DNA of 64,000 nt from Nageia nagi (Eukaryota; Plantae; Pinophyta): NCBI GenBank assembly GCA_050084985.1, contig JBITNC010000001.1, positions 48,422,001-48,486,000 of the forward strand, in the 5' to 3' direction. Made by a program: the position numbers and the translations under genes. Positions within the stretch are counted from its first letter, which is position 1, and every line of letters starts with the position of its first letter. Positions 2,313-31,450 of the stretch are shown here, one piece after another. Under the pieces are notes generated by a model. That model worked only from the letters and a program-made list of their open reading frames with translations, was not told the origin of the DNA and did no database searches.

Positions 2313-2449
2313 TCTTCTATACCCGTCCCGAGACTATACTTTGGTCATAACTCATAATCTTGCTGAAATTGTTACTTGTGATTCAATTTGATTATTCTGG
2401 TTTTGACTTCGGCATTCTAGGAAAGGAGTTCCAAAACAATGGTGTTTTG

Positions 2450-3520: not shown

Positions 3521-5723
3521 GAATTTTGTCTCATCTCTAGTTTGATACAATAGTTTCCTTACTTTGTCATTTTTAATTTTGCTTGTACCCTAGAAGCCGG
3601 CGGAGTTGAACCTCATGCGCCATGACTATTGAGATTGTTTTGAGTATTTTTGATTGCATTTCAAGAAAAGTTGGTATTCTTCTTCCATACTAGTAGCATT
3701 GAAAAATTGTTCAACTAGGTTTAATAGCAAGTTGGGCCCAGGAGGGTCCCCACAAAGCTAAAAACGACTGAAGGTAACCATAAATACAAAAAGAGGGGGA
3801 TCGAAATCCTATATGCATGAAAGAAAGGAGAATACAATAAGAGCATTTCAAATAAATAAATAAGAGTACTATATTGCCAAAATTGGATGCTCAAGGACGT
3901 GCTAAGGAGTGTGAGAGGGTGCTCCCCCTATCGTAGTTGTAGTGAAGTCTCTTCGATTCTTGGAGTTGATAGTCGTAACACCACCAACGGGACCTCTCCT
4001 TTGAGAGAGGTTGAAAGAAGGATGTGATGCGACAATCGTTGCTCGAGAGCTAGGTTGGGATAGAAGGTGCTTCCATTGAAGGAAAGCCTCTGCATGTAGA
4101 GTACCACACATCTTTGGTTTGTATGCTAGAAAAAGGAGGAGATTTATCCATGGGAGTCTTAGAAAAGATAATGGTACCATCCTTGAATCTCGTAGTAAAT
4201 TGAGCATTGAATGATGAAATGGTCCTCAAACTCAATCTCAACTGCACACAAGTGACAAACTTTGAGCTCACGTGCTAGATGGTGATCCATCTCAGTCCGT
4301 AATTGGTGTGAGCAAAACCCGAAATTGACTAAGAAACATCCTCAACCAAAGAGGTAGATGTAAGTTGATATAAATAGGGGTGACGAGCTGTCCTCTATCA
4401 ATTTGCATAAAGTGTTGAGAGTAGTGGAGTAGCTTGGGCATGAGAGGTTGCTAGGGAGCGACTAAAGTACCATGGATGTATGCTCTGTAAATTGGATCAC
4501 GAATTGAGTTCAATGAGTCATTTGGAGATGTGGATGAATCTAGCATGGGGGTAGGTAATTGGTCGTGTGAAAAACCTAAGTGATGCAACATATATGAGAC
4601 CTTAGTTAATGAACACCAACAACAACCCTATGTTGCTAACTCCATTGGCAAGGCTAAGGCCATGGCAAGGAGTTTGTCAATTTCAACATCTAAAGTTTTG
4701 AAGCCCTGGAAGCATGGGAGCAAAAGGGTCACCACTACTAGAGCCCACACTTGAAGAGGTTGACAATCGAACTTTGCAAATATAATGTGATGGAGAATGA
4801 TCCTCTTGCTCTGAATGGAGCTGGATAATGTATTGATTAGGATCCTTTCTGTCGTGGCCCAATTTGTTGTCCTCAAGCTAGGGCCGCAAACCTTCACACT
4901 AAAGAACTGTGGGAGTAACTAAGGTATGGAATAAATGTATCCTGGATGGTATGTCCTGGAAGTGGAGTTGCATGCAGTATCTCGAGGAAAGAAACCGTTG
5001 CATAGCCTCTACATACTCTTATGAGGAAATATAGGGAAATGTATATTGAAGGTGGTGGATTGGAAACATGTTGGTTTACAACTTGCAATCTTGGAGGGTA
5101 AACCCTACCTATAGCCAAATGATGTATTTGGATGATTTTGAAAATGACTATCTTGTAGATAATTTCGAGATGATGATTCTAGAATGACTTGGTTCAATCC
5201 TAGGGGTTGTTAAGGCTCGAAAATAGAGCATTCATGTTTTGGGGCTTATGATACTAAGACATTGCACATTATGGGCCTAGGTGCCAAAACATTGGGTGTT
5301 CTAGCATGCATGTCCATTTCAAGTTGCATTGCTTTTGAGAGGCACCTTTTGGCTTTGAAGATGTCCCTACAATTCAATTGCAATGATATTGCACTTTTGC
5401 TTCCTCTTTCTTAATGATCTTTGATAATCATACTTCTTTGATTTGCACCATGATTTGAAATTAGCATTTGAGAGTGTTTTATGAAAGACTTACAAATTGG
5501 ATTTTGAGTTCACCTAATTGGACCCACTTAGGACAATGTGTGCATAAGATAATGCTAATTTAGAGAAATTCACTTTAACCTTGATTTATCCAAAATGGGT
5601 CTAAATTAACATTTTACATGAATCAAAGAGAACAATTAATATTTGCATTAAGTACCCTTTTGACTTTCCTAGGATAACTTTTCCCTCTTTTCTCTTGCAA
5701 ACTTTGGTTAATGAACTTCAATA

Positions 5724-8700
5724 TGTTGGGATGCTTTTCTTTCCCTCGACGACCCTTTGAAGAACGCGTGTAGGACTTATGAGTTGCCCACCAACATAGT
5801 TGGGAATGCGTTACCAATTCCCTCGTTTGAAAAGGATTGGGCACCTCCAAGGCTTTTGTTTAAACACTTACTCAACGACTCAACATTTTGTCGTTGTAGG
5901 TATGCCTGCAAGCGAGATCTCGTGCTTGGGCAAGTGTTTTTGATCTAGGGATAGGTGAAAGAAAGTGCGGTATCCCTCTTTGGAATCAACCTCAATGGAA
6001 TGGAATGAGAGTTAGCAGTGTGTTAACCAACGTTGTTTTATTTGATGTATAGAGTTTATTCAAAATATCTGTGTGTGGACTTAATGATTGTATTTGGTTT
6101 TGAAAGCATAAATAAAATATTGTAAAGTGAGAGACTACACTTTGTGAACCAAAAACGGATACTTGGTTAGATACCAAACAAGTCACCATGATGAAGCATT
6201 GTCTAAAAAGTTAATCCTTTTCGGATCAGTTTAGGGATTTCATCCAGTTCATCCAGCTTTGTGAACAAACAACTATGTTCGAGTTGTTCCAAAGAGGAAT
6301 GGGGAGGAATGCTGATTGAGAGCAATCAAATGGATGTGGTGGAAGAACATGGAAAGAACAAGAGTTTGGATGTAAACCTCTAGTTTGATGTCATAAAATA
6401 GGAAATAGATTCAAAATACCTCATCTAGTGCATGCTATTAACCAAGCAACTATCAAATACTGATTTCGAACACTTTAAAGAATAAAGCAATGATACATTC
6501 CCTAAAACTCTTGAGTTTTCAAAGGAAGGACGCAAAAGTGTCAAACGAGCAATGATAATCCTTAAGAAACAATTCACAACACCACAAATGGATAAACAAG
6601 CTCAATCTTTGCCTTAACCACTTTGTATTAACTTATAAAAGAGTTGTGCAAGGATACATCAATTTGCTCCTCTTTTACAAAAGTTTCACTTTTTTCACAA
6701 AATGAGCTCTAGTGAAAATGAGACCCCATGCCATTTATTTATAGGCAAAATTAGGTCAAATTCTCAAGTGTTGCCCTAATTTCTAGAAAAACACTAAAAT
6801 GCTAATTTGAATAATAAATTGAGATTACAATATCGTTTTAGTGGGAGAACAGTCTCATCCCACTAAAATATGCTTGAAATAAAATATTTACAAAAATTGA
6901 TGCCCTTCAGCATGGATTTTGAGGCGTTTTGCATCAATTTGGCAAAATTTGGAGCTTCAAATTGCCGTTTTGGATTTGTTTGTCAGTCTTTTGAGCTCCT
7001 CTTTTTTTCAATTTGGATTTGCCCTTGATGTGATCGTTCTGGCAAATTTTGAAGGAATTCTAAGAAAACTTTTCGAAAAAGTGAATTTTTGGTCTATTTT
7101 TTGGAAAAGATGGGGTGGTTCGAAATTTGAAATTTTTTTAAAAAGTGGATTTGACCCCATGGATGGATGAAGTATGGGATTTTAAGGTTCTTGGGAATTT
7201 TTGAGAGGATTTGGATCCTTTTTGCATCGAATTTGGGGCTTTTTCATGAAGGGGCATTTTGGGGCTCCATAAGGTGTTTTTGTATTTTTGGAGTTTTCCA
7301 CTCATTCCCAATATTGAGAAGAAAGGCCAAAGGTGGGAAAACTTGGAAAATGAACGCCTACGCATTTTGGGCATGATTTTCCTCTTTTTTAAAAATTTCA
7401 AAGGCCAAAGTGCTTAAATCCTTATTCCATATATGATCTCCAAATTTCTTTTTTTTTTTGAAAAAGTGAAGATTTTCAGCCTTTAGATCTTGGATCTTAG
7501 ATTTTTTTGTGTTTTTCTTCACTTTTTTGGATCAAAATCACTTCTCTTCACAATAGAAATGGGTACCCAAATCAATAATCAAAATTGATTTCTAAAATTT
7601 TGGATCTTGAGTCACAATTTCGAAAATTTGAAGTTCTCTTTTTTTTTTTTCTGATTTTCTCCATTTTGGGAGGGCAAATCCATGATTTGAGGAGTTTTTC
7701 TTGTCCAAATCATGCACTTGGGAGACCAAAATGATGTAGAATTGAATTTTGCACCCCATGAAGCTCACAAATTCCACTTTTGACAATTTTTAAGCCTCCT
7801 TGATGTTAGGTGCAGGTTTTAGGAGTTTAGGCAAGTTTTTGTAAAAATTGAAAAATGACGGAAACAAGTCAAAACTGCCGCCTAGCTTTTTGAGGGAGTA
7901 AACTTGATTTTTTTGCAACATCGCAAGAGGCAATGTTGATCTCGTTTGAATTTGACACCCTACCTTTCTTTCCAATTTTGATTTTGAGAATTTTTGAAAA
8001 AATTGGAAAATTTTAGAGCTCTCCCATTGGCTGATCCAAATTTTGGGATTTTGAGGGAGTAGATCAACTTTTTTCCAAAAACTTAAAAACATGAATGAGA
8101 TGCAAAATTGGATTTTCCATGCACCTAGGACCTAATTTTTTCGATTTTTGAGCAAAAATAGGCCCTTGCAAGCTAGGTGCAGGTTTTGAAAGATTTAGGC
8201 AAGTTTTGGAAAAAATGGAAAATGAGGGAAAAGTCTCAAAACTGCTGCCTAACTTTTTGGGAGGCAAAACTTGATTTTACATTGCAAGAGGCAATGTTGG
8301 TCTCCTTTGAATTTTGCACCCTACTTCACTCTCCTTTTTTGATTTGGCCAATTTTGGAAAATTTAGAAAATTTTGGAGCTCTTTCATTGGCCAATTGAAT
8401 TTTGATTATTTGAGGAAGTAGATCTCATTTTTTTGGAAATCTCAAATCATCAAACTTGTGTGAAATCCCATGAAGATAAAAAATTTCACTTTTTTGCAAT
8501 TTTGGGGCACAAGAAGGGTAGGCGCAGGTTTTAGGGTGTTTAGGCTATTTTTGAAATTTAACAAAACATGGGAAACATGCCAAAACCAGCGCCTAGCTGT
8601 TTTGAGGGGTATTTTTTTATTTTTTTCGAAAATTCCAAGAGGAAAAGTGCCTAAAATTGGGTTTGGCACCCTACCTCATCCTTGGATTTTCGTTTTTGCA

Positions 8701-11688: not shown

Positions 11689-11769
11689 TTTCTGATGACT
11701 GGAATTGCTGTCCTGAAAGTTGACCAGCTTGGTAGGAGACCTCTGCTAATTGGAGGCATAAGTGGAATT
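11689..11769 (+). CDS. VGT3: Sugar transporter (VGT3/pSuT-like, MFS sugar porter), internal exon
   Basis: Splice sites ttgcag|...|gtaaga. 81 bp encoding FLMTGIAVLKVDQLGRRPLLIGGISGI, which contains the D-x-x-G-R-R sugar porter motif. Confidence 0.93.
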
Positions 11770-12093
11770 GTAAGATCCTTTTGTCCTTCATTCACTGAGG
11801 CTGACAATCTGTTAAAAAACGGTATAGGGAATCAATTTCAGCAAGCTTTTATCTTAGGGAAACATGAGTTTTAGGGAGAAGTTGAAATGGATTATGTTAG
11901 GTGTTTTATGTGATATTTATTATCTTCTCTGATTCTTTCCTTGGGCAATTACTTTGTTTAATTTCAGGATTTACTGTATCCATTTTTTTCCTAACATTGT
12001 TATTTAAATAGTGTTTCACATTCCTTTATTTTTTTGTTTGAAGTCTCAGTTAAAAAATAATAAGCAAGCAATTTTTGTATTTTGTTTTTGCAG

Positions 12094-12192
12094 ATGGTAT
12101 CATTATTCCTGCTTGCAGCTTATTACAATTTTCTCAGTGGTGCACCTATTGTGGCAGTTCTTGCACTGCTGTTGTATGTTGGCAGTTATCAA
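12094..12192 (+). CDS. VGT3: Sugar transporter (VGT3/pSuT-like), internal exon
   Basis: Splice sites tttttgcag|...|gtattg. 99 bp encoding MVSLFLLAAYYNFLSGAPIVAVLALLLYVGSYQ. Confidence 0.93.
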
Positions 12193-13328
12193 GTATTGAC
12201 CCTTCTTAATACCCAAAATTTGCTATATACATTTGCATGTTCTTATGGATGTTGGATTCTTTGTTAATGAATTCTCACTATATACAAAATAAACTATTAA
12301 GTTAATAGTTAAATCTTAATACATTATCAGGCTTCAAGTTAAAACTACATATTATATGCATTTTGTGACGCTGAGCTTCAGTTTTATGATTTTGCAACTT
12401 TTGTCATTAACAATGTTATCTAGAATATGTTCTTTTCCTTTGATAGCCAGAAAGATTTGCATCGTATTTGAGTTGAAATGCAATAGGTGCATTATATATG
12501 TGTATGTGATTCAAGTTGTGAGCCTTTTCAAGGGAGGCACTTTTAGGGTAGCATCACTGGACAAATATCGAAAGAACCATTTTATTACCATGATTATAAG
12601 AGTAAGCAATCTCAGTTTCCTTTTGTGCATTGATTTTGGATTGGCAATTAGCTTAATCCCCAAGGATGCAAGGGAAGTATTTCGTGAAGTGCAATTCTGC
12701 ACCTTTGTTTCTCTTTATGTGAGGTGTTCTTACCTATTTCTCCTACCTGTCTGTTGCTTTTACTGGCAACTGTTTTGATTCATTCCTTTTATCTGATTGG
12801 TCCAGAGGAGGAAAATGATTAATTGTTACATCCTCAGTGTGCTACATTGATAGTTTACAAGAATTGTCCTTAACCATACTGCTGTTTCTTGTTTGTTACT
12901 TTATATCTGTTCTCTTAACATCTTTACTTTAGTCTGCTTTCCTTCAAGAATAGATTGATTATTTTTCTTAGTGTGAGGATTCCAGGTAATGCTAGGAAGC
13001 ATTAAGGTTCCATGAAATATTTCTTCTTTTCATGTCCATGTGGATAATCTAGTCATCATCACTTCAAGAATCACCTTCAGAAAAGTGCATTTTGTCATTA
13101 TTTCAATTGTTCATTCACTTATGCAAGTTGCATACTTCCCTATATTGCATCAATCGGTTATATTCGCATTGTATTCTGTACATAATCTCTTGTTTCATCT
13201 GTAGACTTAGTGAGATAAAGAACTGTTATCAAGAATGGAATTATATGTTTTGAATATGGATTCAGAGGAATGTACGTACCAGACCTTCTAGCTGCTACTT
13301 CATAAGAATATATTTGAGTGCAATGCAG

Positions 13329-13466
13329 GTGTCTTTTGGCCCCATTGGCTGGCTGTTGGTCTCGGAGATTTTCCCTCTACGTACAAGAGGTCGTGGGATA
13401 AGTGTTGCGGTGCTTCTGAATTTTGCCTCAAATGCTCTTGTTACATTCTCCTTCTCTCCATTGCGG
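13329..13466 (+). CDS. VGT3: Sugar transporter (VGT3/pSuT-like), penultimate exon
   Basis: Splice sites atgcag|...|gtaagg. 138 bp encoding VSFGPIGWLLVSEIFPLRTRGRGISVAVLLNFASNALVTFSFSPLR (GPxxW and SEIFP motifs). Confidence 0.95.
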
Positions 13467-15518
13467 GTAAGGTTTTTTATAATTTTATATTTCGTTACTG
13501 CTTCCAATATAACCCGTTCAAATATATTCTAGTAAAGTTCTTAATTAAAATTTAAACCTGAATTCCTTGAAGAAAAGAGTCGGAAAGCATGCACATGAAA
13601 TTTGAAACTCTTTAGTTTCCACATCTGTAGCTGAAGGCTTTATGAAAGGTGTCACCATAACACTAATAAAATAATATAAACTATACCCTACTTAAACAGG
13701 TTATCTGAAAAGCTGGAAAAAATGACAGCCACCACATATTGGCCAAATTGGGAAATTCTGTTAATCATAAAACTAAACATCCTTGTTTTTGTTTACTCCT
13801 GTAGGGCTATCAAAATTTCTGTGGAGAGGAAAGTTGTTGTGCCTGCATAACACACCCTAAGATGCAGCATTTTGGTAACCCTATTTTTTGCAAAGGCAAT
13901 GAGGTGTATTGTCTTGAGATTGGCTTTTGGCGACAAATAGTTCATTCTGAAGAGTGCAAATATGATATCAGGTAGCGATTCAAGGAGATCATGCGATGAA
14001 GACCTTGAAAAGTATTAGAGTATCCATCGTCAGTTTTGCAGCCAAGGAGTTAGGATCTGAGAGCTATTGACAGAGCACGGGTTTTTGGCTCTAGATTGAG
14101 ATTAATAGAGATGGGATTGTTTTGTTCAATTTTGAGCTTGGAAATGGCGAGTGTGACGAAAATGTGCGTTTTTGCAGTGTCAAAAATGCAAAGTTGAGCT
14201 CGAAATGATCGTTTTTGCACACTTCGAGCTCGGAAATGCTGGAAATGACCGAGTGTGGTGGAAAATGTGCGTTTTGGTCGAGTTTGAGCTTGGAAAGGAT
14301 GAAAATGATCGAGATGATAGGGAATTGATCATGAATGTTTGGAAACAGTTGATACTACTAAAGATGGTGCACAAAGGCTTTTCACGGGACACTATGATAC
14401 TATCTATTTTGAAGCTTGTGGGACTCCTAACTCTAGAAGATGGTGTCCCTAAGCAGTTGATTCAAGCATTCGTAAGGATGAGCCAAGTGCAAAATGGGAA
14501 ATTAAGTATCTTTTCCCATGGAAATGATGAAGGATCAAGTGACCATGTAGATGCTCCCAAGGGTGGATAGATAGTATAGATTTTTGGTAATGGAGAGTTT
14601 GATGATAAAGGGTGATGAAGAATATGTTGGAGGCTTTTTCTTTCCTACCCCTGTAGGTTGGCAAGTAGTATTGCAGGGCTTAGGGGAAAGACTCCAATAC
14701 CTGAGTGGTAGGGCGTTACCCCTACCTGCTATGAGGATTGTTCACCTCAAAGGTTAGAAAGTGAAGGGTGCATGGGCTTACTCAGGTGGTTTGGTAGAGA
14801 TGTTTTAAGCTATCACCAACTCAAATGAAATTTGTTACTTAAGGACTCGAAGGGTCTCTCTAATCCAGTGAGGTTGTTTCTCGAAGAAAAATAAAAAAAT
14901 AAAAGAAGGTTGTTGCGAAAGCCGCGCAAAAAAAAAGAAAAATAAACAAAAGGGGTTTGTGAAGAGATGGTGATATATGAATGGGGCTCTAGGGCAATGT
15001 TCTCACCGATTAGTGTGAATTTCAGAGACTTGGCTCGCATGGGTTTGTTCTAGGTTCCATGCATTCCCGATCTGACTTGTGAGGCAACAACACGAATACC
15101 TCAACAAGGGAGCTTGAAGCTCAAGTGTGGAAAGGTAGGATAGGATGGGGTAAGACTCAATGACGGAATGAAGTTCCTAGGTTAAACGGCATATGTGAGT
15201 TCTCTCGAAAGACACTAATCCAAAGTGCAAACTACGGAATGTTACAACTACACACCACTTAGAATGTTTCGTAAGATCTACAAGCACTTTTTTGTCCACC
15301 TTTTAGAAGATTTACAAAATGAACCAAACATTCAAGATAGCATAGAGAAATAACATACAATGACATCCATAGTCTAAAATAAGAACATGCTCACTTTAAT
15401 TACTTGAGATTTATATCACAATTGCGAAAAATAGGAAATTTGCAAGTTTGGAAGAATAGTGTAAGTAGTCCAATTTTTCACAAAAATGTCTAATTCCTTA
15501 CAAGTGACCCAAAATGGG

Positions 15519-15528
15519 CTATATATAG
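15519..15528 (-). promoter_or_regulatory. Main LTR TATA box (U3/R region) of the nested LTR
   Basis: TAGGGTTAGGG...AAAACTATATATAGCCC lies about 900 bp from the LTR 3' end. The same motif and spacing occur at about 28635-28672 in the other solo LTR. Confidence 0.6.
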
Positions 15529-15769
15529 TTTTAGAGCAACTCTAAATGTTGCCCTAACCCTAATTGCAACTTACGAGAAAATAAAATATGGTCCAATCAA
15601 AAAACGCCACATGGCATCACAAGATATCTTCCAAGTTTGTGGGAGCAAATCCTCATCCATCACAAACTTAGGAATTATTAACCAATAAATTCAAGTTTCC
15701 AATAACTATGGAATAAAATAAAATAAAATATAACAAGTATTGTGACTAGGCGTTTGGTGGACCCAACGC

Positions 15770-18700
15770 CTCTACATGCCCCTCAAAGTCGTTGTCTAGG
15801 AATTTAGCTATGAGCTCCAATCCATGCAATATCTCTGATACTGGGCTTGTTCTTGGCCATGTAGTGCTCCACCTTGTCTACTATCCTCAACATATCCTTC
15901 TCCTAGGCATGAGCCTTAAGCAAATGCTCCAAGTGATTGCCAGTCTAGAATGTGTTGATATCTTCAGTCATAATCAAGCTGTGAAGGAAATGCCTCACTT
16001 CTGCCACCACCAAGTCTCTGTCTCGGATGCTTGCATCATCATCAAGGAACTTTACCTGGAACTCCATTTGCTCAAGGTAAGTGTTTGCTTTGTCATTGAG
16101 CTTCTACACATCCTTTTGCACCTCTTGGAATCGAGTGCTATTTGATTGACCACACCCAAATAGAACCAATATTCTTCGCAAAAACTTCACGTCTTTTGGC
16201 TTGTGATTCTGTGTCATCTCAAACTGCATGATCATGTGCCGCCTAGAATCCAGGACTCTGAGAAAATTGGTTCTCTACAATGATATCTTTGAGCTTCTGC
16301 TCCTTGAGCGCTACCCTCTCTAGTGCTCCAATAAATTGCTGAACTACTGCCAAGACCTCATCTATTTGCTTTTGTTTCACCGCAATCATACCCTCCTTAA
16401 GTGGCTTGATCTTTCGAAGTTCTTCAGTGGGTACCTTAGTCGAATCCAATTCCTTTGTCAACTTCTTCTACGCGGCTAACTCCTTCTTGAGGCCCTTAAT
16501 CTCCTTATCTTTCATCATACCATCTTTGGTGATGGCCTCAGCGCTGGAGATGATTGCATGTTTCTGAACAGCCAAACTGATCAAACCTATATTAATGATC
16601 TGGTTAATATGCCTAAGGTCTTCTAGGCGTTGTGGGTTCTCCTTGTTGGCTATAATAGTCTTAATGTGTATAGCATTATCAGCCAAGTGGACATACGTCT
16701 GGGATTTTCTTAGATGAGTGGAGCTTTCTTCTACTTGGTCATCCTTTTCCCCTACTTCAAATTCTTTTCCGACGTCCATATTGAACACATCAAGACATTC
16801 CTCCATGTTGACACCCTACTTATCCCTAGGTGATGGTTGATAAGTGTCCACAGATGGCCTCTTGATTGGCAAAAATGTTCCTCTTTATTCTCTTTGAGGG
16901 TCTCTCCTCCTTCTGTTCATCATGCTGATCATCTGAAACTCCTGTGGCTTGGGATTGCGGAGTCCCTTCAATTGAGCCCTCCTTTGTATTGTCTTTGAAA
17001 TTGGTTCTCTGCTTCTCTCTGTAGATGGCCCTAACGTTGTATGCCTACGAATCTCCTCTAAAATCTCCATAGACACATCTTGTCATTGTGCATCAGGGAT
17101 CTCCTCGTCTTGGACCATATTCTGCTCCTGTTCATCCTCCGATACAATAATCTCTCCTTCCTTTTGGTTTTCATCGGGCTTGTAAGAGGGACTGGAGGTT
17201 GTTGACCCAGATGATGGTAAAACAGGTGACATCGCAGCTAAGGTGGCTCTAGGTGGTGGAGAAGGATCTTGATGTCTATTTCGCACACACCTTACTACCT
17301 TATCTGTGGCTACCCGCTCTAGTTCCCTTGCATCATGCTCATCCATGATGGCCTGCACTTGCTGTACAACTCGTTCAACTAGGTTCTTGCAACGCATGGA
17401 TGCATACTGCCCAACAGGTGTCTTGTTTACTGGAGAAGATTGCGTGACCTTGGAAGTAGACTCTTGAATTCTTCTTCTTTTGTTCCCCGAGAGTCTCTTA
17501 CTAATTGTGGCTTCCACACAGTGTTGCTCATCACTTGCATTCTTGTGTACCCTTTCCCTTATCCTCTTGATCTCTACCTCATTGCTGATATTCCGGAAAG
17601 GTTTCTTGTCCGCAAGTGGCTTATGTTCATAGGCTTTCTTCCTTTCCTTCATGAAGAATGAGTGCAACCTGTGGTTCGGATCATAGTGGTCAGTGGAAGG
17701 CATCTTCTTGAAGTTGAATCTAGCCAACTCTTCTTTCATAGCATCCACATCCGCCTAGAACTTACATTGGTATTCTCCCACATCGATCGGTAGATTTGAT
17801 GTAGCCGATTTCTTCTGCCACACTTGTTCGTGTAAAAAGGCCAATTGCCTCATAATCTCCATTAGCAGAATCCTATTATTCACGAACCTTGGCAATTGAT
17901 AGGGCTATACGACTGATCCATGTATACGAATATAAGAGAAGTGTTGGTGATGGAGGAAGAAATCGCCATGCTTCTTCAAAGCATCTTGGGCAAAATTGGA
18001 GATCCGTGCAATTGTGATCTCTCCCTTAAGTTCTTTATATATCTAATATTCCCATCCATCGTTTTTCATTGTAAAACTATCCCACCTCTCTAACTTCCAC
18101 TTGGGATAGCACTTCCAAATGGAGTAAGTTCCTCTTTCTACCCAAGCCGTCTCACCTTGCGCTGTAACCCTGTATTTGCTATGGAGCAACATGTAACCAA
18201 GTATGAATTGATGTAGAATTTAGAAGTTGTATCAATGGATGACAATTGATCGGCAATTGAGTTGCTCAACACCTTGCTCCATTCGATCCTTCTACCTCTA
18301 GCAATCTCAAGAATGAACCCAAAGACTCCTTCATGAATTTTGAAGCGTCTTCCTTCTTGAGAACTTTGGATAACAGGAGAATCATTAACTCGTCTGCCGG
18401 GTAGAAGTTAGAGCGAGGAGCATTGATGAGTGCATTTCCCTTCAACCTGTGATGTTCTTCGAACATCCAACTCTTAATAGCGATGGATGCCCTGGGAGTC
18501 TCTTTGTAGCATGCGAGTGACCTAGCTTTGCTATATTCATAGTCACCCTCAGAAGTCCATTGAAATGCTGCTTTAATAGCTTCGGGGCGAAAGTCCATAA
18601 TGATGTCTCCCTTGATGTCTTGGAGGATTCTCTCTCCCTTCTGCTAGTGGTGATTAACTTCCATGCACAACTTAGGGAATGGGGCTGTGAGCGGGATGAA

Positions 18701-18960
18701 GGTGCAGGTGGAGAGCCGGAGAAGAAGACAATGTCCTGCTTTAGGTCGGTGGAAAGAAGCCCACCAATGCTCTCCCTCATCTGCATGGGGTCTATGTTTT
18801 GCCAGTTAGTATCTCCGATGGTTGCAAAACCGTTCCTCAAGAACCGGGCCCCTTGCGGAAGGGCTTGTTGTCTCTCAAGAATGGAGATAATGCAATCCTG
18901 TTTCAACCGCTCGAGGTCTCTAGCAAAGTTAGGAGCTGAATTGCCCTTGGAGGGAGTCAT
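15770..18960 (-). pseudogene. Decayed ORF of ~1000 codons and unknown function inside the LTR (structured N-terminal domain, S/P-rich and acidic linker, coiled-coil C-terminus)
   Basis: A chain of collinear minus-strand ORF fragments (19011-18442, 18598-18266, 17748-17083, 16806-16468, 16461-16243 and beyond) is joined by single TAG/TGA stops or 1-bp frameshifts. No RT, RH, IN, PR or gag motifs. Confidence 0.8.
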
Positions 18961-19180
18961 GGTATTTTCAATTGCGATGTGGCTCACCAAGGATGCTACG
19001 TGGCTTTCCAAGTGAGAATAACTCTCACGTGATGGTAGCTAACCTCCCAAATGCTTGCGCAAGCCCTAAGATGCACTAATTAAGATGTTTGGATGCAAAA
19101 ATCTGCAATTTCTTGCTATTTTGGCGCAAGGGTAGAAGTGGAGCAAGTTTTGAATTTGGGAAAATGAGGTCCCAAAGCTT

Positions 19181-19190
19181 GTATTTATAG
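19181..19190 (-). promoter_or_regulatory. TATA box upstream of the LTR-embedded ORF
   Basis: GGCTATAAATACAAGCTTTGGGACCTCATTTTCCC lies about 220 bp before the ATG at 18960. Its context resembles the outer LTR TATA (GCCTATAAATAAGAGGCATGGGGTCTCATTTTCACC). Confidence 0.55.
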
Positions 19191-22100
19191 CCAATTTGTC
19201 TCCCACCTTGCTCTAGGTAGCTAGAGTTTCTATCAAACTTGATCATAGCTCTCTATCTGGTTGACCTCGAGATGTGTGCCGGTTCGGAAATTCATGCCAA
19301 GCCTCTTGTGTCCATACATTGGGGTCCAGAAGGTCATTCAGGCTGGGCGCATGGACAAAAAAGACAGAAAGGTAACTTTTTAAACCATTTGCCAGCCCTG
19401 GAAGGGAGTATGCTCCCAATTTTGGGTCTCCTGGTCATGTGCTTGCTTGCTTTTATCTTCCAACTCACCCATTAACCTGATTTCTCTCAATTTTTGGTGT
19501 TCCAATCGGCTGAATTTACCAATTTTGATGCTTCGTTTCAAATTGGGCAACTTGTAGGCTTGGTGCATTTTCATGCTTCTCGAATCTTGGAGGCTTCCTA
19601 GGCTTGGTGCATGCCTCAAAAAGTCAAGAATTTGTCTTTTGAGGTCATGCGCCAGCGCCCCTAGATATGATTGAATTGGTTTTGAATCCCTCGGGTCCAT
19701 GCCTTGTCAAATTTTCACTTTCTGTCGGATTGAAAGCCCTTCCAAGCTTGGCGCATGGTTCAAAAAGACAAGATTGAGTCATGCACCAGCCTCTTGGGTG
19801 ACTTAGATTTTTTTTCCGACATCCAAACTTGCTCAACTTGTCCTCCTAGTCAAATCACATGGTTTAAAAAGACAAGATTTTGTCTTTTTGAAGCATGCGC
19901 CAGCCTCTTGGTGTCTTTGCCTTAGGATTATTGCACCTTCTTCTGGTCTAGAATACTTTCTGTCTCTGGCGCATGCTCAGGAAAGTCATAATTGTCTCCT
20001 GGAGGCATGCGTTGGGCTTGCAAGTGCCTAGACTTCATCTTCGAACCTTTCCTCCCGCCTGGATGGCCCCTTGGCCCAGTCACATGGGTCAAAAAGACAA
20101 GATTCTGCCTTTTTGAAGCATGCGCCAGCCCTTGGGAATGCCTAGTTTGATTGATCAGCTTTCGGCTCGTCTTGGACTTCCTAATTCACCTAGATTCGAC
20201 TTTTACTCTTCCCGGACTTAGCCATTCTAAGGAATTTGCAATTTCTATTTTATCATGGCTAACTCTAACGAAGGGGGAGGCTATGAACTTTGAGTAGTCC
20301 GGGTCTCGGTGACGCAACATGGGGAGTAAAGATGACAACAAAACGAAGTATATACAAAGGTGTGCTTTAGGGTCCCCAAAATTGCAAGGTTTTGGGGCAT
20401 GTTGTATTTTAGTCACAACAAAATACAGTTTCAAACACATTTGGGCTTCGAACTTTTCAGTTCCGATCGAAGGAGCTTCGTAGGGGATGAAATCAAGAGA
20501 TAAAAGTTTTGACTTCCAAGAAGTGTGGAGTTGAGCTTAGATATGGAAAATTGAGTTTTTTCAAACAAGTTGAAATGAAAATCTAAGAGAAAGGTGTGAT
20601 GCCAAATGACAAATTAGGCAACTTTGCGCTTGGAAATTTTGAAAAAGCTCAAGTTTTGCCCTCCGAAATCTTAGGGGGGAGGTTGCCAACTTTTCCCTCA
20701 TTTTCCAGAATCTCGAAAATGGCCTTTCTCAAAATCAGCGCTTACCTTTTGGGAGGCCTAAATTGATCCCAAACAGAAATTTTTGAGCTTGGGAGCATGG
20801 AGAATGCAATTCTACATCAAATTGGTCTTTCAAGTTTGCAATTTCAACAAGATTTGCTCCCTCTAAAGTGGAAAAAACAGGAAAATGAGTAAAGAGGAGT
20901 AAATGACAGCCAATAGAAATGCTTGAAATTTTCGAAATTCCAAATTGTTAAAATGAAAATCTAAGAGAAAGGTGTGATGCCAAATCCAATTTTAGGCACC
21001 TTTGCTCTTGGAATTTTTGGAAAAACACAAAAAATGTCCCCGAAAAGCTAGGTGTAGGTTTGGCATGTTTTCCCCCATTTGGCAAAATCTCGAAAATGAC
21101 CTATTCCTCCCAGAACCATCACCTACCCTTCTTGCACTCTAAAATTTATAAAAAATGGAATTTTTGATCTTCATGAGGTGTAGGATGGGATTTCATACAA
21201 GTTTGATGATTTGAGTTTTTAAAAAAAATTGAGATTTAGTCTTCCAAAATCATCAAAAAGTGATCACCCAATGAGAGAGCTCGAAAATTTTCAAAATTTC
21301 CCAAAATTGGCAAAATCAAAAAAGAAGGAATCCAAAGATGAGCAACTTTGCTCTTGGAACTTTCAAAAATACCAAATTTTTGCCCCCCAAAAAGTCAGGC
21401 ACAGGTTTTCCACCTTTTCCTATTTTTTTGAAATTTGGAAATCCTCCTATCTTCCCCAAAACCTGCGCCAAGCATGGAAGGCTTCAAATTTTGTCAAAAA
21501 TTAAAATTTTTGATCATAGGAGCATGGGAAATCCAATTTTGCACAAGTTTGATGTTATAAATTTTTGAAAAAAAGTGGATCTACTCTCTCAAGATCATAA
21601 ATATGGATCAGCCAATGGGAGAGCTTGAAATTTTTTTCAAAATTGCCAAAATCAAAATTGGAGAGAAAGTTAGGGTGGCAAATATCAAATTGACCATCTT
21701 TGCTCGTGGAATTATTGAAAAAACTCAAGATTTGCCCTCCAAAATCCAGGGGGGATTTACCAAGTTTTGGATCTTTTCAAAATTTTCTCAAACATTCCCA
21801 AGACCTTGAAAACCTGCACCTAGCATTATGGGGGCTTAAAATTTGTCAAAAGTGAAGTTTGTGAGCTTCATGGGGTGCAAAATTCTATTCTACACCATTT
21901 GGGTCTTCCAAGTGCATGATTTGGACAAGAAAAACTCCTCCAAACCATGGATTTGTCCTCCAAAATGGAGAAAATCAGAAAAAAAAAAAAAGAAAACTCC
22001 AAATGAACATAATTTTGAGTTAAGATCCAAAATTTTAGAAATCAATTTTGATGATTGATTTGAGCATCCATTTCCATTGTGAAGAAAAGTGATTTGGATC

Positions 22101-25100
22101 TAATAAAGTGAAGAAAAACACACAAAATTCTCAAGATCCAAGATTTGAAGGCTGAAAATCTTCACTTTTCTTGAAAAAAGAAAAAAAAATGAAGAAAAAA
22201 ATAAAAATTGGAGATCATGTGTGGAATAAAGATCCAAACACTTTGGCTTTTGAAATTTTTGAAAAAAGAGCAAAATTATGCCCATTATGCCTAGGCACTC
22301 ATTTTCCAAGTTTTCGATCTTTTGGCCTTTTCTCAATATTGGGTATGAGTAGGAAACTCCAAAAATGCAAAAACACCTTTGGAGCCTCCAAAAGGCCCTC
22401 TCATGAAAAAGCTCCAAATCTAGTGCCTAAAAGCTCCAAATCCTTTCAAAACTTCCCAAGTACGTTATAATCCCATCCTTCATCCATCCATGAGGTCAAA
22501 TCTACTTTTTAAAATTTTTCCAAATTTTAGACCTATTTTCCAAAAAATAGACAAAAAAATCCACTTTTTTTCGGAAAATTTTCTCATAATTCCTCGATAA
22601 TTTGCCAAAATGATCACATCAAGGGAAAATCCAGATTGAAAGAAAGAAGGAGCTCAAAAGATTGACAAATGGATCCAGAACGGTGATTTGAAGCTCCAAA
22701 TCTTGCAAAATTGATGCAAAACGTCTCAAAATCTTCGCTAGAGGGCATTAATTTTTGTAAATATTTTATTTCAAGCATATTTGAGTGGGATGAGTATTGT
22801 TCTCCCACTAAACGACATTGTAATCTCAATTTAGCATTCAAACTAGCATTTTAATGTTTTTTTAAGAATTAGAGCAACACATGAAAAAATCCCCAAATTT
22901 GCCTATAAATAAGAGGCATGGGGTCTCATTTTCACCAAGCTCATTTTGTGAAAAAAGCGAAACTTTTGTAAAAGAGGGGCAAATTGATGAATTCTTGCAC
23001 AACTCTTTTATGAGCTAAATACAAAGTGGTTAAGGCAAAGATCAAGCTTGTTTATTATTTGTGGTGTTGGGAATTGAACTTTAAGGATTATAATTGTTCA
23101 TTTGACACTTTCGCATCCTTCCTTTGAAAAATCACGAGTTTTAGAGAAAGTATCATTGCTTTACCTTTCTAAAGTGTTGGAAACAAGTCTTTGATAGTTG
23201 CTTGGTTCATCAAATGCATGTCAGATGAAGTATTCTGAATTTGTTTCCTGTTTTATGACATCAAACTAGAGGTTTACATTTAAACTCTTGTTCTTCCCAC
23301 TTCTTCCACCACATCCATTTGATTGCTTGCAATTGGTTGCACTTCTTGCTCCTCTTTGAAACAACTCGAACAATAGTTGTTTGTTTGCAAAGTTGGATGA
23401 ATTGGATGAAATCCCTTAACTGATTCGAAAATGAACTTTCTAGACAATGCTTTATCGTGGTGACCAGTTTGGTATCTAACCAAGTATTCGTTTCTATTTC
23501 ACAAGTGCAGTCTCTCACTTTCCAATATTGCCTTTATGCTTTATTTATGTTTTTGCAAACCCAAATACAATTGTTAAGTCCACACAAAGTATTATGAATA
23601 AAATCTTAATCAAATAAAAAAACGTTGGTTAACAAACTGCTACCTCTCATTCAATTCATTTTCCATTGAAGCTGATTCCAAAGAGGGATACCGCACATAC
23701 ATTATCTATCCCTACGCAGAAACACTTGAGCAAGCGTTGAATTTTGCTTGGCAAGGATACCTACAACATCAAAGCATTGAGTAGGTGTTTCGACAAGAGC
23801 CTTGGAGGTATAAAGTCCTTTTCAAACGGGGGAATTGGTAACGCTTTCCCGACTATGTTGTTGGGGAGTTCCTAAGTCCCAAGGTGATTTTCAGAGAGTT
23901 GCCAGCGGGAAAGAAAAACATCCCAACAAAAGTCTAACCAATATATGTAAATAATCATCTTTCAGTATAATTTGACACATAAAACACCAGTTTGAAATGT
24001 TGATGATATTAACAACAGGAGAATAAGTAAAAAAGAAATCTCATCCTTCCTGTGAGAGACTAAATTTGTAGTGTCAATAATTGGCTATGCCTTGAATATT
24101 GACAGGTACTGAATTCGAAACTACAAACATGAATAGTCTTTTGAATAAATTGGCACAGGACAAAATACAGTGAAGACCTAGGATGCGGAGCCATGGCATG
24201 CTTTTAGATACATGCTTGGACAGTAATAATATGCCAATAGCAAGTAGCAATTTCAATGTTATTTACATTTTTTTGTGTTTTAGCAGTTGAACCAGTTTAG
24301 ACAACCTGCAAGGTCTCCAAGGCTTTTCTGAATCTCTTGCACAGGTTTGGCTGATTCTAGTAACTGGGCCAAATAGAAATGGTGTCAACGTTATACTTCC
24401 AAATCCAAATTGATACATATGGCAGCTTAAGACTCACCTGAAATGTGCTTTCATCATAGCTGAACATGTAGATGAATTGCAGAGAATCATTCGTAAGTGT
24501 TCTTTATTAGATCTGTCAAAAGTAAAAATTGAATCATCACTGTGGTATAATAAATTATAAACTTGGAAATCAAAGTTTAGTGGGTGGTCTTAATGGTCTT
24601 GAATATAGGAGCAATACTGTTCATGTGTACACACCACACATTCATGGGCTCTAAGTTTGTGTGGTGATGTTCAATATCAGTGACTGCACTGCAGAGTAAT
24701 AGGCATTGAATTGCTATTTGAGTTTATGCTATGACTGAATATCGGTACAAATTGCCAATGAATTGTTGAACATGTGGACCATCCGACCAAGTATTGCTTT
24801 GGACTTTGAGGAGTATGAGGGCAAACATCTATTCATGCTCAAGAATACATAGCTTGTTTTGTCAAGTTTGTAGGGTGTTATTTAAATTTGAAGGATCTAA
24901 ATCTATATTTATATGTTCTTGTTCTCTGTTTTTACATCCTCTCTTTTTAAGATAGAAGAGAAAACATCGCATAAACAAAACAAGCTTGACGATTTTATTA
25001 TACAACTTAATTATATGAGAAACAATCATTGATATATATTTATTTCTAGACAAACTTTGATAGGTCTTACAAACCAAGGGGTTTAAAAGGACATTAAAAG

Positions 25101-25826
25101 ACTTTCTATCTATATCCTATGTTAAGAAATCTACATGCATTTCTAGAAATTGAAGATTTGGGACATAAAATATCCAAGTTGGAGTTAAAAGGGGCTTTAA
25201 AAATGCAAGTGATAGTCTAATAACCTGTTTTAAAGATTGCTTCTAAATTAATAGGATTTCTATGCTTAGCTGTATATTATCAATACTTTATTTGAAATTA
25301 AGCCTATATTGTTGCACCCCTAACAGACCTATTAAAAAATGATTCTTCACTTTGTTCATTGAAACTGAACAAAGTTTTAGAAACTAAAGAAGTATTAACA
25401 TGAACACCTATTTTAACAATGCCAATTTTTTCCAAACCATTTGTAATTGAATGTGATACATCTGGCATAACAATCAGAGCAGTAATCATGTAAGAAGGTC
25501 ATCCATGACTATCATGCATGGCATTGGAAATTTAGGTATTGTTTGTTAGGAGTTATATTTAACAGTACAACTGATCACGCCAACCTATAGTATTTACCAC
25601 CAGAGAAAACCTTATCTGCATAACAACAAAATTGTTGAGAAGACACAAACTATCAACTACGAAATATATCACAAAAAGCAAAAGGATAATCAAGCAGCTG
25701 ATACCTAATCAAGATAGTATGCATATGCCACAATTTTCTATTAATGTTCTTGACTGGATAAGTGAGGTTTAGGGTGATAATGTAAAAAGCAAAGAATGTT
25801 GTAATATTAACAAATAAAATATATAT

Positions 25827-26337
25827 CAACGTTGATTAAACAAGAACCATCCATGCTTCTTGCTTGCAAGGGATGGTCTGCTATCTTAAGTGTGCCCCCG
25901 AGGGATGGCATTGAGGACTTCCCTTGTCATCCTCGATTCAAAGGGTGAAATCCCAGGATTTCCTTGGACTTATTCAGGCCGTTTTCTGTATTTGCTTGAA
26001 AGGGGGATGTTTTGTGGATGGCTTGGGGATGCCCAGCTGACCTAGTTCCATGAGGCTCAATGGCAAAGAAAAAGCTTATGTTTTGCATTGGACATAGTTT
26101 TGGTTGAGATATGATTACATGATTCAGATTTAGGATTGATAATCGTATGCAAATTTTCTGATTCCACGTTTACAGTTTTTATTATGTATTTATGCTTGAA
26201 TTTATGGAAAACTCTACATTTATTTTTCATGTTTTTTTTTAATATCCTCGTGATGTCCCTAAAAATGGCCAGTTGTGCCCTGTCATCCTAATTACCTATC
26301 ACAGCGTTCCTGTCCCTCATACTCTGTCTTAACATTG
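25827..26337. mobile_element. Possible non-autonomous DNA transposon (hAT-like MITE)
   Basis: Imperfect terminal inverted repeats CAACGTTGA / TTAACATTG and repeated ggggatg / tgtccc motifs. It interrupts the chromovirus pol. No TSD found. Confidence 0.3.
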
Positions 26338-26423
26338 GAAAAATGATATTTTGTCAATTAAAGATTGAATCTATTTGCTTGCAGAACCAAAATTTATACA
26401 AAAGGTTTTGAGCGATAGCCATG

Positions 26424-29400
26424 TGTTGTGCTCAAACAGAACACACACCAAAATCTGCCATTTTGAGGACCCAACAATTTTGCTAAAGTCATGACCCCTC
26501 CAGACCATGCGCCCCCTTTTAGGGAATCAAAATGACGGATACAAGTGACAAATGAGGAAAGTGACTAAGTAGAGGCATGAAAGTCCCTCCTCTACACTAC
26601 TCAAGTTTGACTCAAGAAAACATTCATGTCCCCTCCAAGACTTGTGCCAGCCTTCCAGGGACCTCAAAAGGCAAAGATATACAATCAGGAAGCAAAATTG
26701 CCTAAGTACCAAACACGACAACACTTCCAAAGCCCAAGCGTAAATCTCCTAGGAGACATGATTCTTTACCTCTCCAGACTTTGCACCAAGCTAGTTTCCT
26801 CCCAGACGCAAATTTTGATGAAGACAAGGGTTGGTGACCCCCTCCAAACTTGTGCCAGCCTAGAAGAGCCTTCTGTGTTGGCACAAGGTTGCCGAAAGAT
26901 AGAAAAATCATAAATTAAAAGCATATCCATTCTTGGTGCAAATCCAGACCCAAACAAGAGTTTTGACCTCTCAAAGATGTGCATCAGGCCTAGTTGTCTC
27001 TCTTTGGCGCAAATCTTGACCAAGACAAGGTTGTTATTCCCAAAGGACTTCCGCCAAGTCAATTCTCCCTTTAGGCACAAGTCTAGACTAAGACAAACAC
27101 CTTGACTCTTGGAAGACTTGACCTAGACACCTATATCCCTCTGCCTTGGTGCAAATCTCAAGTAGGACAACCATCATGACTCTCCTCAAACCTACGCCAA
27201 GCATTCCTCCTCTTGTTGAGCGCAAGTTCATGCCAAGTCAAACCTCTTAACCTTCATGACACATTTGTAGGCTCGTTGGAACATAAAAAATGACAAGTTA
27301 AAACAATCCCCTCCCTTGCTGCAAATCTCACTTGAGACATTGTCCCTAACCCCAGGGAGACTTGTGTTGGGCTTGTCTTTCTCCTTTTTTGACACAAATG
27401 CAAACTGAGACACCCATTTTGACTTCTCCAAACCTTGCGCAAGGCCCACACTTCTCCCTCTTGGTGCATGTCTTCATTAGGACAAAAGTTGTGACCTTAC
27501 AGACATTTGTGCTAAGCTTTCAGGTGCATGTCTCAACCAAGACAAACCCCTTGACCTCCTGGAAACCTGCGCTAGCCATGAATTCCCACCTTGAGCGCAT
27601 ATCCTGGTATAGACAAGCATTATGACCCCCTCAAGATTTGTGCCAAGCCTTCTTGGGTACAAGCTCAAGGCAATACAACTTCTTTGACCCTCTAAACACA
27701 TGCGCCTACCTCCTAAAACTAGCCGACCTCAAATTTCGTATTAAACTTGCCTAGAAAGCCACATCCATCCATTAAAGCACATATCCCTAGGCCCCATTCG
27801 ACTTACCCTAGAAAATATTTATAAGAGGGGAGTTTTTCATTCCCACATCATAAATTTACTCCCTCTTTCAGATTTGCTAAGGCGTTGTGGGTACTATTTC
27901 AGATTAGGGATCCAAATGACGAAGACAAACTCCGAGATGAAAGGGAGAAGATTGAGCTAGAATAGGTGGGGAGTAACGAAGGAACTTCATCAAACAAGTT
28001 CAATATTGACCTCGCAACTCTAATGAGAGCATCACATGAAGACCCTAGCTAGAGGGTGAAAAATGAGTCCACAGAAACTCACTATGTGAGGAAATTCATC
28101 TTCAAAGTCAACAATACACTGTCAATCACCAAGGTCCTCTTGAACAAAGACCTAGAGAAATCTCAAGACTTGGAGGCTCCTACCTAGAAGATGGAGATTG
28201 GTGAGATCAAGACCATTGGAGCAAAAGAGATGGAGGAGAGCTAGAAGAAGTAGAGTCCTGAAGAAGATAACACACTCCCAAGGCCATACCATCCTCAAGA
28301 CAGGGTGACCACTCAAGAACAATGACATCCTTGACATGCGAATGGTAAAGATTCCAAGTCATGTGTTGCAGAGGTGAAAGGGGTAGATGAACTCATGGGC
28401 AACAGTTAATGGAAGGCGTTTCATTTGGGGTGAATTATTTTCAATTTTATTTTATTTTGCATAATTACATTTTAATTTGGATTTCAAAACATTATTCATT
28501 TTGGATTAGCCTTGTGATGGATGAGGATTTGCCCCCACAAGTGTTGGATTTGATCTTGTATCGCCATGTGACATGTTTTTATTGGACCATTGTTAGTTAG
28601 GGTTAATTTAGATGAATTTCATTTGAATTTGCATTAGGGTTAGGGTTTTCTTCCAAAAACTATATATAGCCCTAGAGGGCTCATTTTGAGGAGGATGATC
28701 ATTTTACTCGAGGAGTTATTTTGAATTTGCTAATATTTTTAACACTCTCTTGTATGTGAATGTTGAGCATAATCTAATACATCAAGACTTGCTTCACTTA
28801 ATGGGATTGTGGACTTGAGTAATTCTAATTAGTGTTTACTTGTGGTTGTTATACGACTTGTGTGCATTTCCGCAATTGTATTCTTGTTAGAAAGTTGAAT
28901 GAGTATCTTATCAAGTTATGTGATTACCACTTGATAAACATTGTCTACTCTTTTGCATGTAAATGGATATATGTTAGTGAAGTTCTCTCTATGTCATTTG
29001 GTTTGGTGGACTGCTCATGTTGTTGCACTTAGTAACATTGCTATAGGCTCCATCTTGCTTACAACTTGGACTTAGTCATTTGTGGAAAAGATCGGATATG
29101 TGAGTAGGCACATCTAATAAACCCAGAGTGAAGGTGATCTAACCCATGATGCATTGTTGAACTCCTCTCGAATGAACTCACCTCATATGCCATCATCCCC
29201 ACTTTTTCATTTTCTTTTACCTTTACTTTGTTATTTTTCCCTTTTTTTTTTTACCATAAAAGTCTATCCTTCCAGTCGGTGCAAGACAACTCCAATGCCC
29301 ATAGTAAAACGTGGTTAACAGTTGTTGTCTCTCCTTCCACTGAGCATTTCAAGTATAGCTACTGTCATAGTCGCATAAGATATCTTATGATGCTAGAAAC

Positions 29401-29520
29401 CTTAGTGTAATCAGTCCTTACAAATGAAGGTTAGCAATGCGACCTCACTCATATGTTGGGTGCCCTTTCCCAGTTATCATCTAGGTGGTCTTTGTAAGTG
29501 GAAAGAAAAACATCCCAACA
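26424..29520 (+). mobile_element. Solo LTR (3097 bp), third subfamily of the same lineage
   Basis: Ends are TGTTGTGCTC...GGAAAGAAAAACATCCCAACA with a perfect TSD CCATG (26419-26423 and 29521-29525). Removing it restores the integrase HHCC reading frame. Confidence 0.93.
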
Positions 29521-31450
29521 CCATGATTCCCCTCATGCAAGCCATATTGGATGTCTTAAAACTTACTATAATATCCAAGAGGATGTTCCCTATACAGGTT
29601 TGTTACAACCTTTGCATATTCCTCAACAAAAATGGGAGAAAATTCGCTTGGAGTTCACTTAAGGGTTACTAGTATCTGCAGGTCAATAGTATTTTTTGTT
29701 GTTGTGCATAGACTCATTAAATATACTCATTTAATAAGCATGAAACAAACCTGGTCAATATCAGAGGTTGCTGGAGCTTTCGTTTAGAATGCATATGAAA
29801 TTTATGGTTCCCCAACAAAATTATTGTTGGTTATAGATATCCTCTTTTCAGAACTTGGCAATCAAGCCACTGGTAAGGAGTTCTTCTCATCCTCAAACTG
29901 GTGGGCAAACTGATATTTTCATTTAATGTATAGAAGGCTATTTGAAATGTTTTTCTTTAGAAAAAGCAACACCAAGGTGCTAAAATTGTTGCATTTGGCT
30001 GAATGGCGTTACAATACTACTTATCATATATGGGCCAAAATGACTCCAGCTATAGTTTTATATGTAGAATCCTCCATGACTCCAAGACTTATTTTTTTGT
30101 TAAAGTCAAGGTTTCTGTAGTATGAAATTTCTTAGAGGATTCTCAAGAAATCATTCTAACTTTGAAGAATAGCCTTCAATTTGTTTGTAACTGAAGAATG
30201 CAGCAAATGATTAACATTGTTTTGAGAGGGAAATCCAAGATAATTGGGTCTACATGTGTACAACCTTAAAAATAAATGTCTTTAAAACAAAGTGGTAAAA
30301 TCTCATATTATCTCTTAAATGTTATGGCAAAGGAAGGTCAGTATTGCATGTATGACGATTCTAACCTGTCATGTTTAAGAAATTAGTTGGGAACACACAC
30401 CAATTCAAATGGAGCTTCGAATTTCAATGGTGAAGGTTGACTTATCCTTGAGCCTGAAGGTATTCTTGAAATACAAATAGAATCCCTGTTTTCACATGAA
30501 ATTACAAAATAGCTTCTCAGATGGAAAGGTTTGCCTAAAGTGAAAGCTTCATGAAATTGAAATTTGATATTAATGTCCATGAGTGACCAAAACAATGATC
30601 AATGAGATTATAGAAAAATACGTGTAATTAGAGCAAAGAAGTGCCTAATGTGACTTCAATGTGTAAGACAAGTAGATAGGGAAAAAAGTAGCAGGGGGTT
30701 TTCATTATCCAGTAGGTTTCATTGAAGCCATGAAGACTGCAGATGGAGAGTTAGGGGGCTTCCCCAGCATTCGAGGTCGGAAAGAAGCTCATGATGTTGC
30801 AAGCAAAGGGAGTAACCCTAGTGGGTTTAGTAGTAATGTGCCAACAAGTAGTTCTTCCAGAGACTTCAGGGATTATATTTACTTTAGCTCGTAGCTTCCT
30901 ATGGTTGAAAAAAAGATGTGATAAGTTTGGAACTCATGTGCTTTGGGATTTATCAGTGATTACTTTCTGTCTGAAGCGGATGGCTTCTCTGATATAAATG
31001 CGATGCCTTTCTAATTTTCGTAGTTCATCCATAATTTCAAAGTATGGGCACCTCTGGTAGGCAGTGATATCGATCACAAATTTCATAGTAGATTGTTGAT
31101 CCTTCGCTTTCTATGCGTTCGAGTCTTCCAGATAAATAAGTGTTTTGGGATAGGAAGATTTTGTTATGATTCTAAGATCTAACTAATCCTAATTATAGGT
31201 GCTAGTTACATTTATCTCTCTTACAATACCCCTTCGTACATATTTATGCTAGGTGATTTGCCCTCATAATGATCTCAAATTCTCAATATATTCTATTTTA
31301 TTCATATACTAAATACATGTACATTCTTTGGATCTTCCGACCTACTTCATTCGCAATTGTTTTATGTATTGTACTTACACGCTGTTCTTTGGCATAAATT
31401 CAAGATCAATTACTAACAAATTGTGTGCATGTCATGGTTTTCGATTACAG

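Follow-up and report, generated by a model that had tools for sequence, protein, structure and literature searches.

Can a long terminal repeat (LTR) of a plant retrotransposon carry a gene of its own? The question is raised by a 5.8-kb unit in Nageia nagi (Pinophyta), located in a stretch of 64,000 nucleotides of contig JBITNC010000001.1 (GenBank assembly GCA_050084985.1, positions 48,422,001 to 48,486,000 of the forward strand; hereafter, the window). The unit is inserted in an older solo LTR (the host LTR), and between its two LTR-type ends lies a decayed open reading frame (ORF) of ~1,070 codons. The original prediction held that the unit is a single solo LTR, that the ORF is a non-gag/pol accessory gene in the unique 3′ region (U3), and that the gene is left in host introns when solo LTRs form. 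We favour, with moderate confidence, a similar explanation: the unit is a solo LTR, of giant size, left by a plant LTR retrotransposon, and carries a selected gene whose protein probably acts, as a chromatin factor of VANC/PMD fold, on palindromes in its own U3.

The unit is read on the minus strand from 20420 to 14625; its first letters are TGTTGTGACTAAAATACAACA and its last letters are GGTAGGAAAGAAAAAGCCTCCAACA. With flanks included, it runs from TATTT followed by TGTTGTGAC to GCCTCCAACA followed by TATTC, and the target-site duplication (TSD) matches at 4 of 5 positions. Read contigs from four public runs were mapped on 14000-21000, and in a second mapping on 14590-14760. All four runs yielded joints from 14620 to 20422 (1, 3, 2 and 1 contigs) in which 5,801 nt (5,796 + 5) were absent, and read depth at 14625/6 dropped several-fold in each run. 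Contigs of runs X2 and X3 that matched as far as 14624 passed directly into the sequence of 20426; the original target was therefore GAATA, and one TSD copy has mutated since. These empty-site contigs may come not from this locus but from further copies of the host LTR; whichever copy they represent, they fix the unit boundaries and the 5-bp target. Every bin of 14000-21000 (30 of 30) was covered in each run by 1,670-8,162 contigs that were mostly <95% alike; the whole unit therefore belongs to a repeated, diverged family.

These results bore out the predicted TGTTG..CAACA ends and near-perfect 5-bp TSD. As also predicted, the terminal motifs recur in three neighbouring LTRs, and neither a primer-binding site (PBS) nor a polypurine tract (PPT) was found at the unit: there is no TGG within 8 nt past its end and no PPT-like run before its start. 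The only PPT-like run followed by TG within the unit sits inside the ORF, and none occurs in its non-coding parts. The unit thus presents several features of a solo LTR, namely TG...CA ends, a TSD in the 4-6-bp range with an empty site, and no adjoining PBS or PPT, paired direct repeats or gag-pol.

A metagenome scan returned two related loci, L001 and L002 (both partial copies), among 196 pattern matches, and no related locus was found in the viral contigs or prokaryote genomes scanned. In L001, the match starts at unit base 1 (TGTTGTGACTAAAACACAACA) and continues through eight palindromes and a TATA module (TATA-1) into the ORF, up to the contig end; its 5′ flank is host DNA with photolyase-like exons and without a PPT. 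L002 starts inside the ORF, with an uninterrupted stretch of 554 aa, continues through a promoter core and a second TATA module (TATA-2), and ends at GGAAAGAAAAACCACCCAACA, the identical terminal motif, past which no PBS was found. Both unit edges are thus backed by independent copies. L001 and L002 are distinct insertions, being 78.6% alike over 1,003 nt. Neither spans both unit ends, and the TSDs of both are not readable. The layout is collinear in the three insertions; in the window it reads, 5′ to 3′, six palindromes, TATA-1, ATG 18960, TAG 15746, an AT-rich stretch, the promoter core, TATA-2 and ~900 nt to the end.

Photolyase-family exons (PF03441) lie at 4575-5250 (+) of L001, ~3 kb upstream of the insertion, and this copy is therefore also in or beside a host gene. 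Two further kinds of match were dismissed: 34 viral matches to the 16-nt end motif showed no similarity beyond it, and one cyanobacterial sequence agreed with the start motif over 21 nt by chance.

The predicted sense ORF at about 18960-15770 was confirmed, with all quoted peptides present. Comparison with other copies by tblastn placed five frameshifts near 18710, 18330, 18198, 16270 and 15850, in addition to several in-frame stops. Pairwise codon counts between natural copies gave ratios of nonsynonymous to synonymous divergence (dN/dS) of 0.09 for L001 and the window (439 of 445 codons used), 0.11 for L002 and the window (504 of 510) and 0.09 for L001 and L002 (256 of 260); with dS at 1.3-2.5, near saturation, these values are rough, and dS was not computable for three sub-regions. 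Six off-frame controls gave dN/dS of 1.11-1.39. Divergence at third codon positions was 2-3 times that at second positions; the C-terminal pieces showed the same bias, and the linker had a dN/dS of 0.22. Non-coding parts aligned at 67.7% (1,215 nt) and 69.4% (1,026 nt). The check among copies proposed with the original prediction thus indicated purifying selection, at a dN/dS of about 0.1. The gene was therefore functional over a long history, in which its position between the same two ends was kept. We consider it very likely that the gene is borne by the LTR.

The non-coding part 5′ of the ORF contains the palindromes, six in the unit and eight in L001. Neither the three neighbouring LTRs nor the remainder of the window contains one, and 100 shuffles gave no such site; the search matrix was built from the L001 sites, hence only the window count is a real test. 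All five palindromes that were folded formed hairpins (z -3.3 to -7.7). The claim that the unit has no internal repeats therefore stood for LTR-type direct repeats, none being found between its 5′ 1.46 kb and 3′ 1.15 kb (best E = 5), and failed overall.

The main TATA had been predicted downstream of the ORF. A TATA is present there, at 15528, but it is not the sole one: TATA-1 lies upstream of the ORF at 19190 and is likely the ORF's own promoter. The promoter core is 65% identical over 265 nt to the 26424-29520 LTR and, together with TATA-2, is likely the main LTR promoter. TATA-2 is 900 nt from the 3′ end of the unit. Comparable distances are found in the ORF-less host LTR, whose single TATA is 1,027 nt from its 3′ end, and in the 3.1-kb LTR, whose 3′ TATA is at 860 nt. 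This similarity argues for U3, rather than the repeat (R) or unique 5′ (U5) region, as the location of the gene; provided that the gene is LTR-borne, we regard this placement as likely. One comparison weighs against it: TATA-1, itself weakly similar to the host-LTR TATA (z 7-8), is nearer to it than TATA-2 is (z 2-5). The two modules show a weak mutual likeness (z 3.6-4.7), which suggests that the gene cassette arose together with a duplication of the promoter module.

The promoter core (window 15483-15733; L002 2749-2960) contains TGTGA(T/A)GGATGAGGATTTGC(T/C)CCCACAA and, 40-50 nt upstream of the TATA, a telo-box-like TTAGGGTTAGGG. It recurs across LTR families and is among the deepest bins of the read mapping.

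A word-index protein search with window 18266-18643 gave one match, P0001 (67% identity); the same search with residues 1-200 of window 16141-18120 gave no match, and that with profile A5 gave three matches, all without names. phmmer with P0001 retrieved 78 proteins at E <= 0.001, mostly fragments. The domain family, which includes P0035, is deep (20-45% identity between subgroups), and several lineages therefore carry the domain.

No Pfam family was found in six window pieces, and only scattered, unrelated matches occurred among 77 and 67 homologues. The Transposase_32, PMD and ATHILA profiles, against which a check had been proposed, matched 0 of 67 homologues, Transposase_28 likewise gave no match in either set, and there was no Pfam match to DUF1985 or DUF287. 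A PDB sequence search with the protein gave no match. An Atlas search produced weak leads to PF20167 and PF03078 (scores 0.83 and 0.82), and no usable match when P0035 was the query. In a Foldseek structure search, VANC21 (PDB 9LNK) was the top match for both predicted models of the N-terminal domain, with no match at E <= 0.001 against PDB (two models) or viral structures (one model). The protein is thus weakly predicted to fold like the anti-silencing factor VANC21, through which a tentative link by fold to the PMD, Transposase_28/32 and ATHILA domains may also run. The original guess of an anti-silencing or chromatin role gained a structural lead from this match; the function itself we infer.

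The predicted S/P-rich and acidic linker was recovered and is evident in L002. The predicted coiled-coil tail was not confirmed: in a crude heptad test, the scores of the tail pieces were equalled or exceeded by 24 and 10 of 50 shuffles, and one linker window scored above shuffles (equalled or exceeded by 2 of 50). No transmembrane segment was found in five pieces spanning most of the ORF (maximum 19-residue hydropathy 0.46-1.30), a result that disfavours an env-like membrane role.

These elements can be assembled into a mechanism. TATA-2 would serve as the main promoter, placing the gene in U3, and every cycle of reverse transcription would then furnish both LTRs with a copy of it. TATA-1 would drive the gene's own mRNA, terminating in the R region just downstream. 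The protein, probably a dimer or oligomer, would bind the 46-bp palindromes and thereby lower silencing of the family's LTR promoters, or activate them, in cis and in trans, much as VANC21 acts on the tandem repeats of VANDAL21. Recombination between LTRs would then leave gene-bearing solo LTRs in introns, where they would decay like the window copy. Such self-targeted anti-silencing or transactivation is a tentative proposal at every step.

Any explanation must accommodate what was observed directly: the ends, TSD and empty site, the collinear layout of three insertions, selection on the frame, the family-specific palindromes and the two TATA modules. From the idea of an LTR-borne accessory gene deposited in host introns, the single LTR-like unit, the selected non-gag/pol gene and the presence of two copies (window and L001) inside or adjoining host genes have survived. 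The solo LTR is probable rather than proven. Neither contig mapping nor collection scans yielded gag-pol or a PBS or PPT junction, and a PBS (TGG) adjoined none of five ends examined; the absence of such junctions among the contig loose ends listed (24 in each case, with 2,549 and 35 further rows) carries no weight. Extra ORFs known from plants are internal (PMC6317226, PMC7264820), no intact element was seen, and the likeness of TATA-1 and TATA-2 is such as two-LTR remnants might show. The unit could accordingly derive, by internal deletion or recombination, from an element whose LTRs were shorter and whose extra ORF was internal; such derivatives would have arisen or spread several times. 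An internal deletion, however, would be expected to leave a PPT and the start of a second LTR, or a direct repeat, and none of these lies between the ORF and the 3′ end in the window or L002; moreover, the same order and junctions recur in three insertions as diverged as dS 1.3-2.5. To our knowledge, an element without terminal direct repeats cannot be copied by LTR reverse transcription. We therefore consider such an origin very unlikely, and the LTR explanation stronger for the recurrence of these junctions.

Since each complete unit in the window is a singleton flanked by a TSD, none of five ends checked has TGG beside it, and VANC is known from Mutator-like DNA transposons, the unit might also be a complete non-autonomous non-LTR element, for example a DNA transposon with TG..CA ends, a 5-bp TSD and a VANC-like gene as in VANDAL. 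Its terminal inverted match is just 5 nt, however, it contains no transposase, and several of its traits are those of LTRs, namely the TATA placed 0.9-1.0 kb before the 3′ end, the 5-bp TSD and the TG..CA ends (PMC6317226); the chance of this origin is, if anything, slighter still. Less easily set aside, although unlikely, is that the gene resides in the LTR and has another role: integration steering, import of the pre-integration complex, a particle scaffold, or MAIN/MAIL1-like restraint of the family. The palindromes would then be host-factor binding sites or RNA hairpins. The hydropathy values speak against an env-like function, and a family-specific array directly 5′ of the gene, absent from the three neighbouring LTRs, fits the co-evolution of VANC proteins with their targets. 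We therefore retain the LTR with a self-targeting gene as the preferred explanation.

The unit resides in a sugar-transporter gene (window 11689-31586, +; PF00083 matches at 13332-13466 and 31451-31582). Its ~18-kb intron at 13467-31450 contains three solo LTRs and, by eye, an apparent decayed chromovirus-type integrase region at 29520-30550. The LTRs at 13835-23928 and 5724-~10070 belong to one 4.3-kb family (79% alike over 3.5 kb). Their repeat region is long and degenerate, a single TATA lies about 1 kb before the 3′ end, and no long ORF was seen. The 3.1-kb LTR shares the two-part layout of the unit: repeats of its own and a TATA-like box at 27815 precede a decayed frame of ~170 codons at 27912-28415, which is followed by the common promoter core and a TATA at ~28660. 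This frame, which has no homology to the unit ORF by hidden Markov model or tblastn, may represent another gene borne by an LTR, or a remnant. Elsewhere in the window, 36050-39350 contains a decayed element resembling a long interspersed nuclear element, with endonuclease- and reverse transcriptase-like peptides by eye (a partial relative lies at 4059-5019), and nested repeats of ~500 bp are clustered with Copia-like gag/pol fragments at 50800-63840.

Table 1. Positions in the window of the unit, its parts and the related LTRs.
Feature	Position	Strand	Remarks
LTR-like unit, TGTTG...CAACA, probably solo LTR	14625..20420	-	5,796 bp; terminal motifs, empty-site joints, L001/L002
TSD copy 1, GAATA	14620..14624	+	
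TSD copy 2, AAATA	20421..20425	+	one transition relative to copy 1
Six ~46-bp palindromes, GCATG..TCAAAAAGACAA....TTGTCTTTTTGA..CATGC	19346..20126	-	first spacings 113, 112, 104, 144 nt; candidate binding sites
TATA module 1, CTATAAATA ... GGGACCTCATTTT	19182..19190	-	230 nt 5′ of ATG; kept in L001 (z 26)
Decayed accessory ORF, ~1,070 codons, sense to LTR	15746..18960	-	ATG 18960 to TAG 15746, 3,215 nt
Conserved domain at the N-terminus, ~450 aa, with a core predicted to fold well	17614..18960	-	best structural match VANC21
Basic, S/P-rich, acidic linker	16850..17560	-	dN/dS 0.22
Conserved C-terminal region, helical/coiled-coil-like by composition only	15746..16800	-	47-59% identity to L002 pieces
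Promoter core with TTAGGGTTAGGG and TATA module 2 (15528-15519)	15483..15733	-	common to 3.1-kb neighbour LTR
Putative R-U5, ending GGTAGGAAAGAAAAAGCCTCCAACA	14625..15482	-	1.1 kb past ORF aligns to L002 over 1,026 nt at 69% identity
Older 4.3-kb solo LTR, host of unit insertion	13835..23928	+	TSD AAAGT; inside ~18-kb intron
LTR unit, start decayed, same terminal motifs	5724-~10070	-	
3.1-kb solo LTR, same terminal motifs	26424-29520	+	perfect TSD CCATG

The unit resembles non-chromovirus OTA Ty3/gypsy elements, which carry extra ORFs, in its 5-bp TSD and in having a large ORF, neither gag nor pol, whose N-terminal domain is folded and whose tail is helical by composition. The extra ORFs of that group include the PMD(-coiled-coil) ORFs of Ogre/Tat (PF10536), ORF-1 of Athila (PF03078, or Transposase_32, PF20167) and Transposase_28 of Retand. 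Very long LTRs are known there, up to about 5 kb (PMC6317226) and 1.9-6.5 kb in Ogre (PMC6431247). Plant extra ORFs are described as internal, on either side of gag-pol (PMC6317226, PMC7264820, PMC4408406; PMC10508981, in its available portion, is silent on their position), whereas the window ORF lies between LTR-type ends with its own TATA, in three collinear copies, and has no Pfam match. As a transposable-element accessory protein beside a family-specific non-coding repeat array, the product is like VANC21 of the Mutator-like VANDAL21 (PMC5735166), whose fold it may share. Unlike VANC proteins and their elements, the unit has no Pfam match to DUF1985 or DUF287, no transposase and a 5-bp TSD, and it is no VANDAL Mutator-like transposon.

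In retroviruses, nef overlaps U3. The position within the LTR, with U3 as the proposed site in the window unit, also recalls sag, the superantigen gene of the betaretrovirus mouse mammary tumour virus, which lies largely in U3, has several promoters including one in U3, and is mostly kept in solo LTRs (490 of 527 contigs; PMC4667437). The sag product, however, is an immune-modulating protein of an animal retrovirus, whereas the window gene has about 1,070 codons, no membrane segment and no homology to sag in any search. Gene23 of Grande (maize Retand/Tat) is likewise an accessory gene with its own promoter, and its product is nuclear (PMC7264820). Unlike the window gene, it is antisense, internal between pol and the 3′ LTR, and lost on solo-LTR formation. 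No plant LTR retrotransposon with a gene inside the LTR was described in the literature searched by title and abstract start, a search outside which most subscription papers fall. Extra ORFs themselves are known; what would be new here is the probable placement of one within a plant LTR, with a candidate target array.

Plant LTRs are usually treated as non-coding and solo LTRs as harmless remains of elements. A selected 1,070-codon LTR gene means that solo LTRs can stay coding, and annotation relying on internal-region ORFs would overlook such genes. It is possible, although we hold it with less assurance than the self-targeting role, that an ancient land-plant LTR-retrotransposon lineage put an anti-silencing gene of VANC/PMD fold and a palindromic binding array into U3, so that each LTR, solo ones included, is a cassette derepressing the family in trans. 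Should the palindromes be the target of the protein with the VANC-like fold, the long-standing question of the role of plant retrotransposon extra ORFs would become directly testable with one protein and one 46-bp site. Sequence-specific anti-silencing would then extend from the VANDAL DNA transposons of Arabidopsis to the retrotransposons of very large plant genomes, as a class I system that outlasts the host's removal of elements by LTR-LTR recombination.

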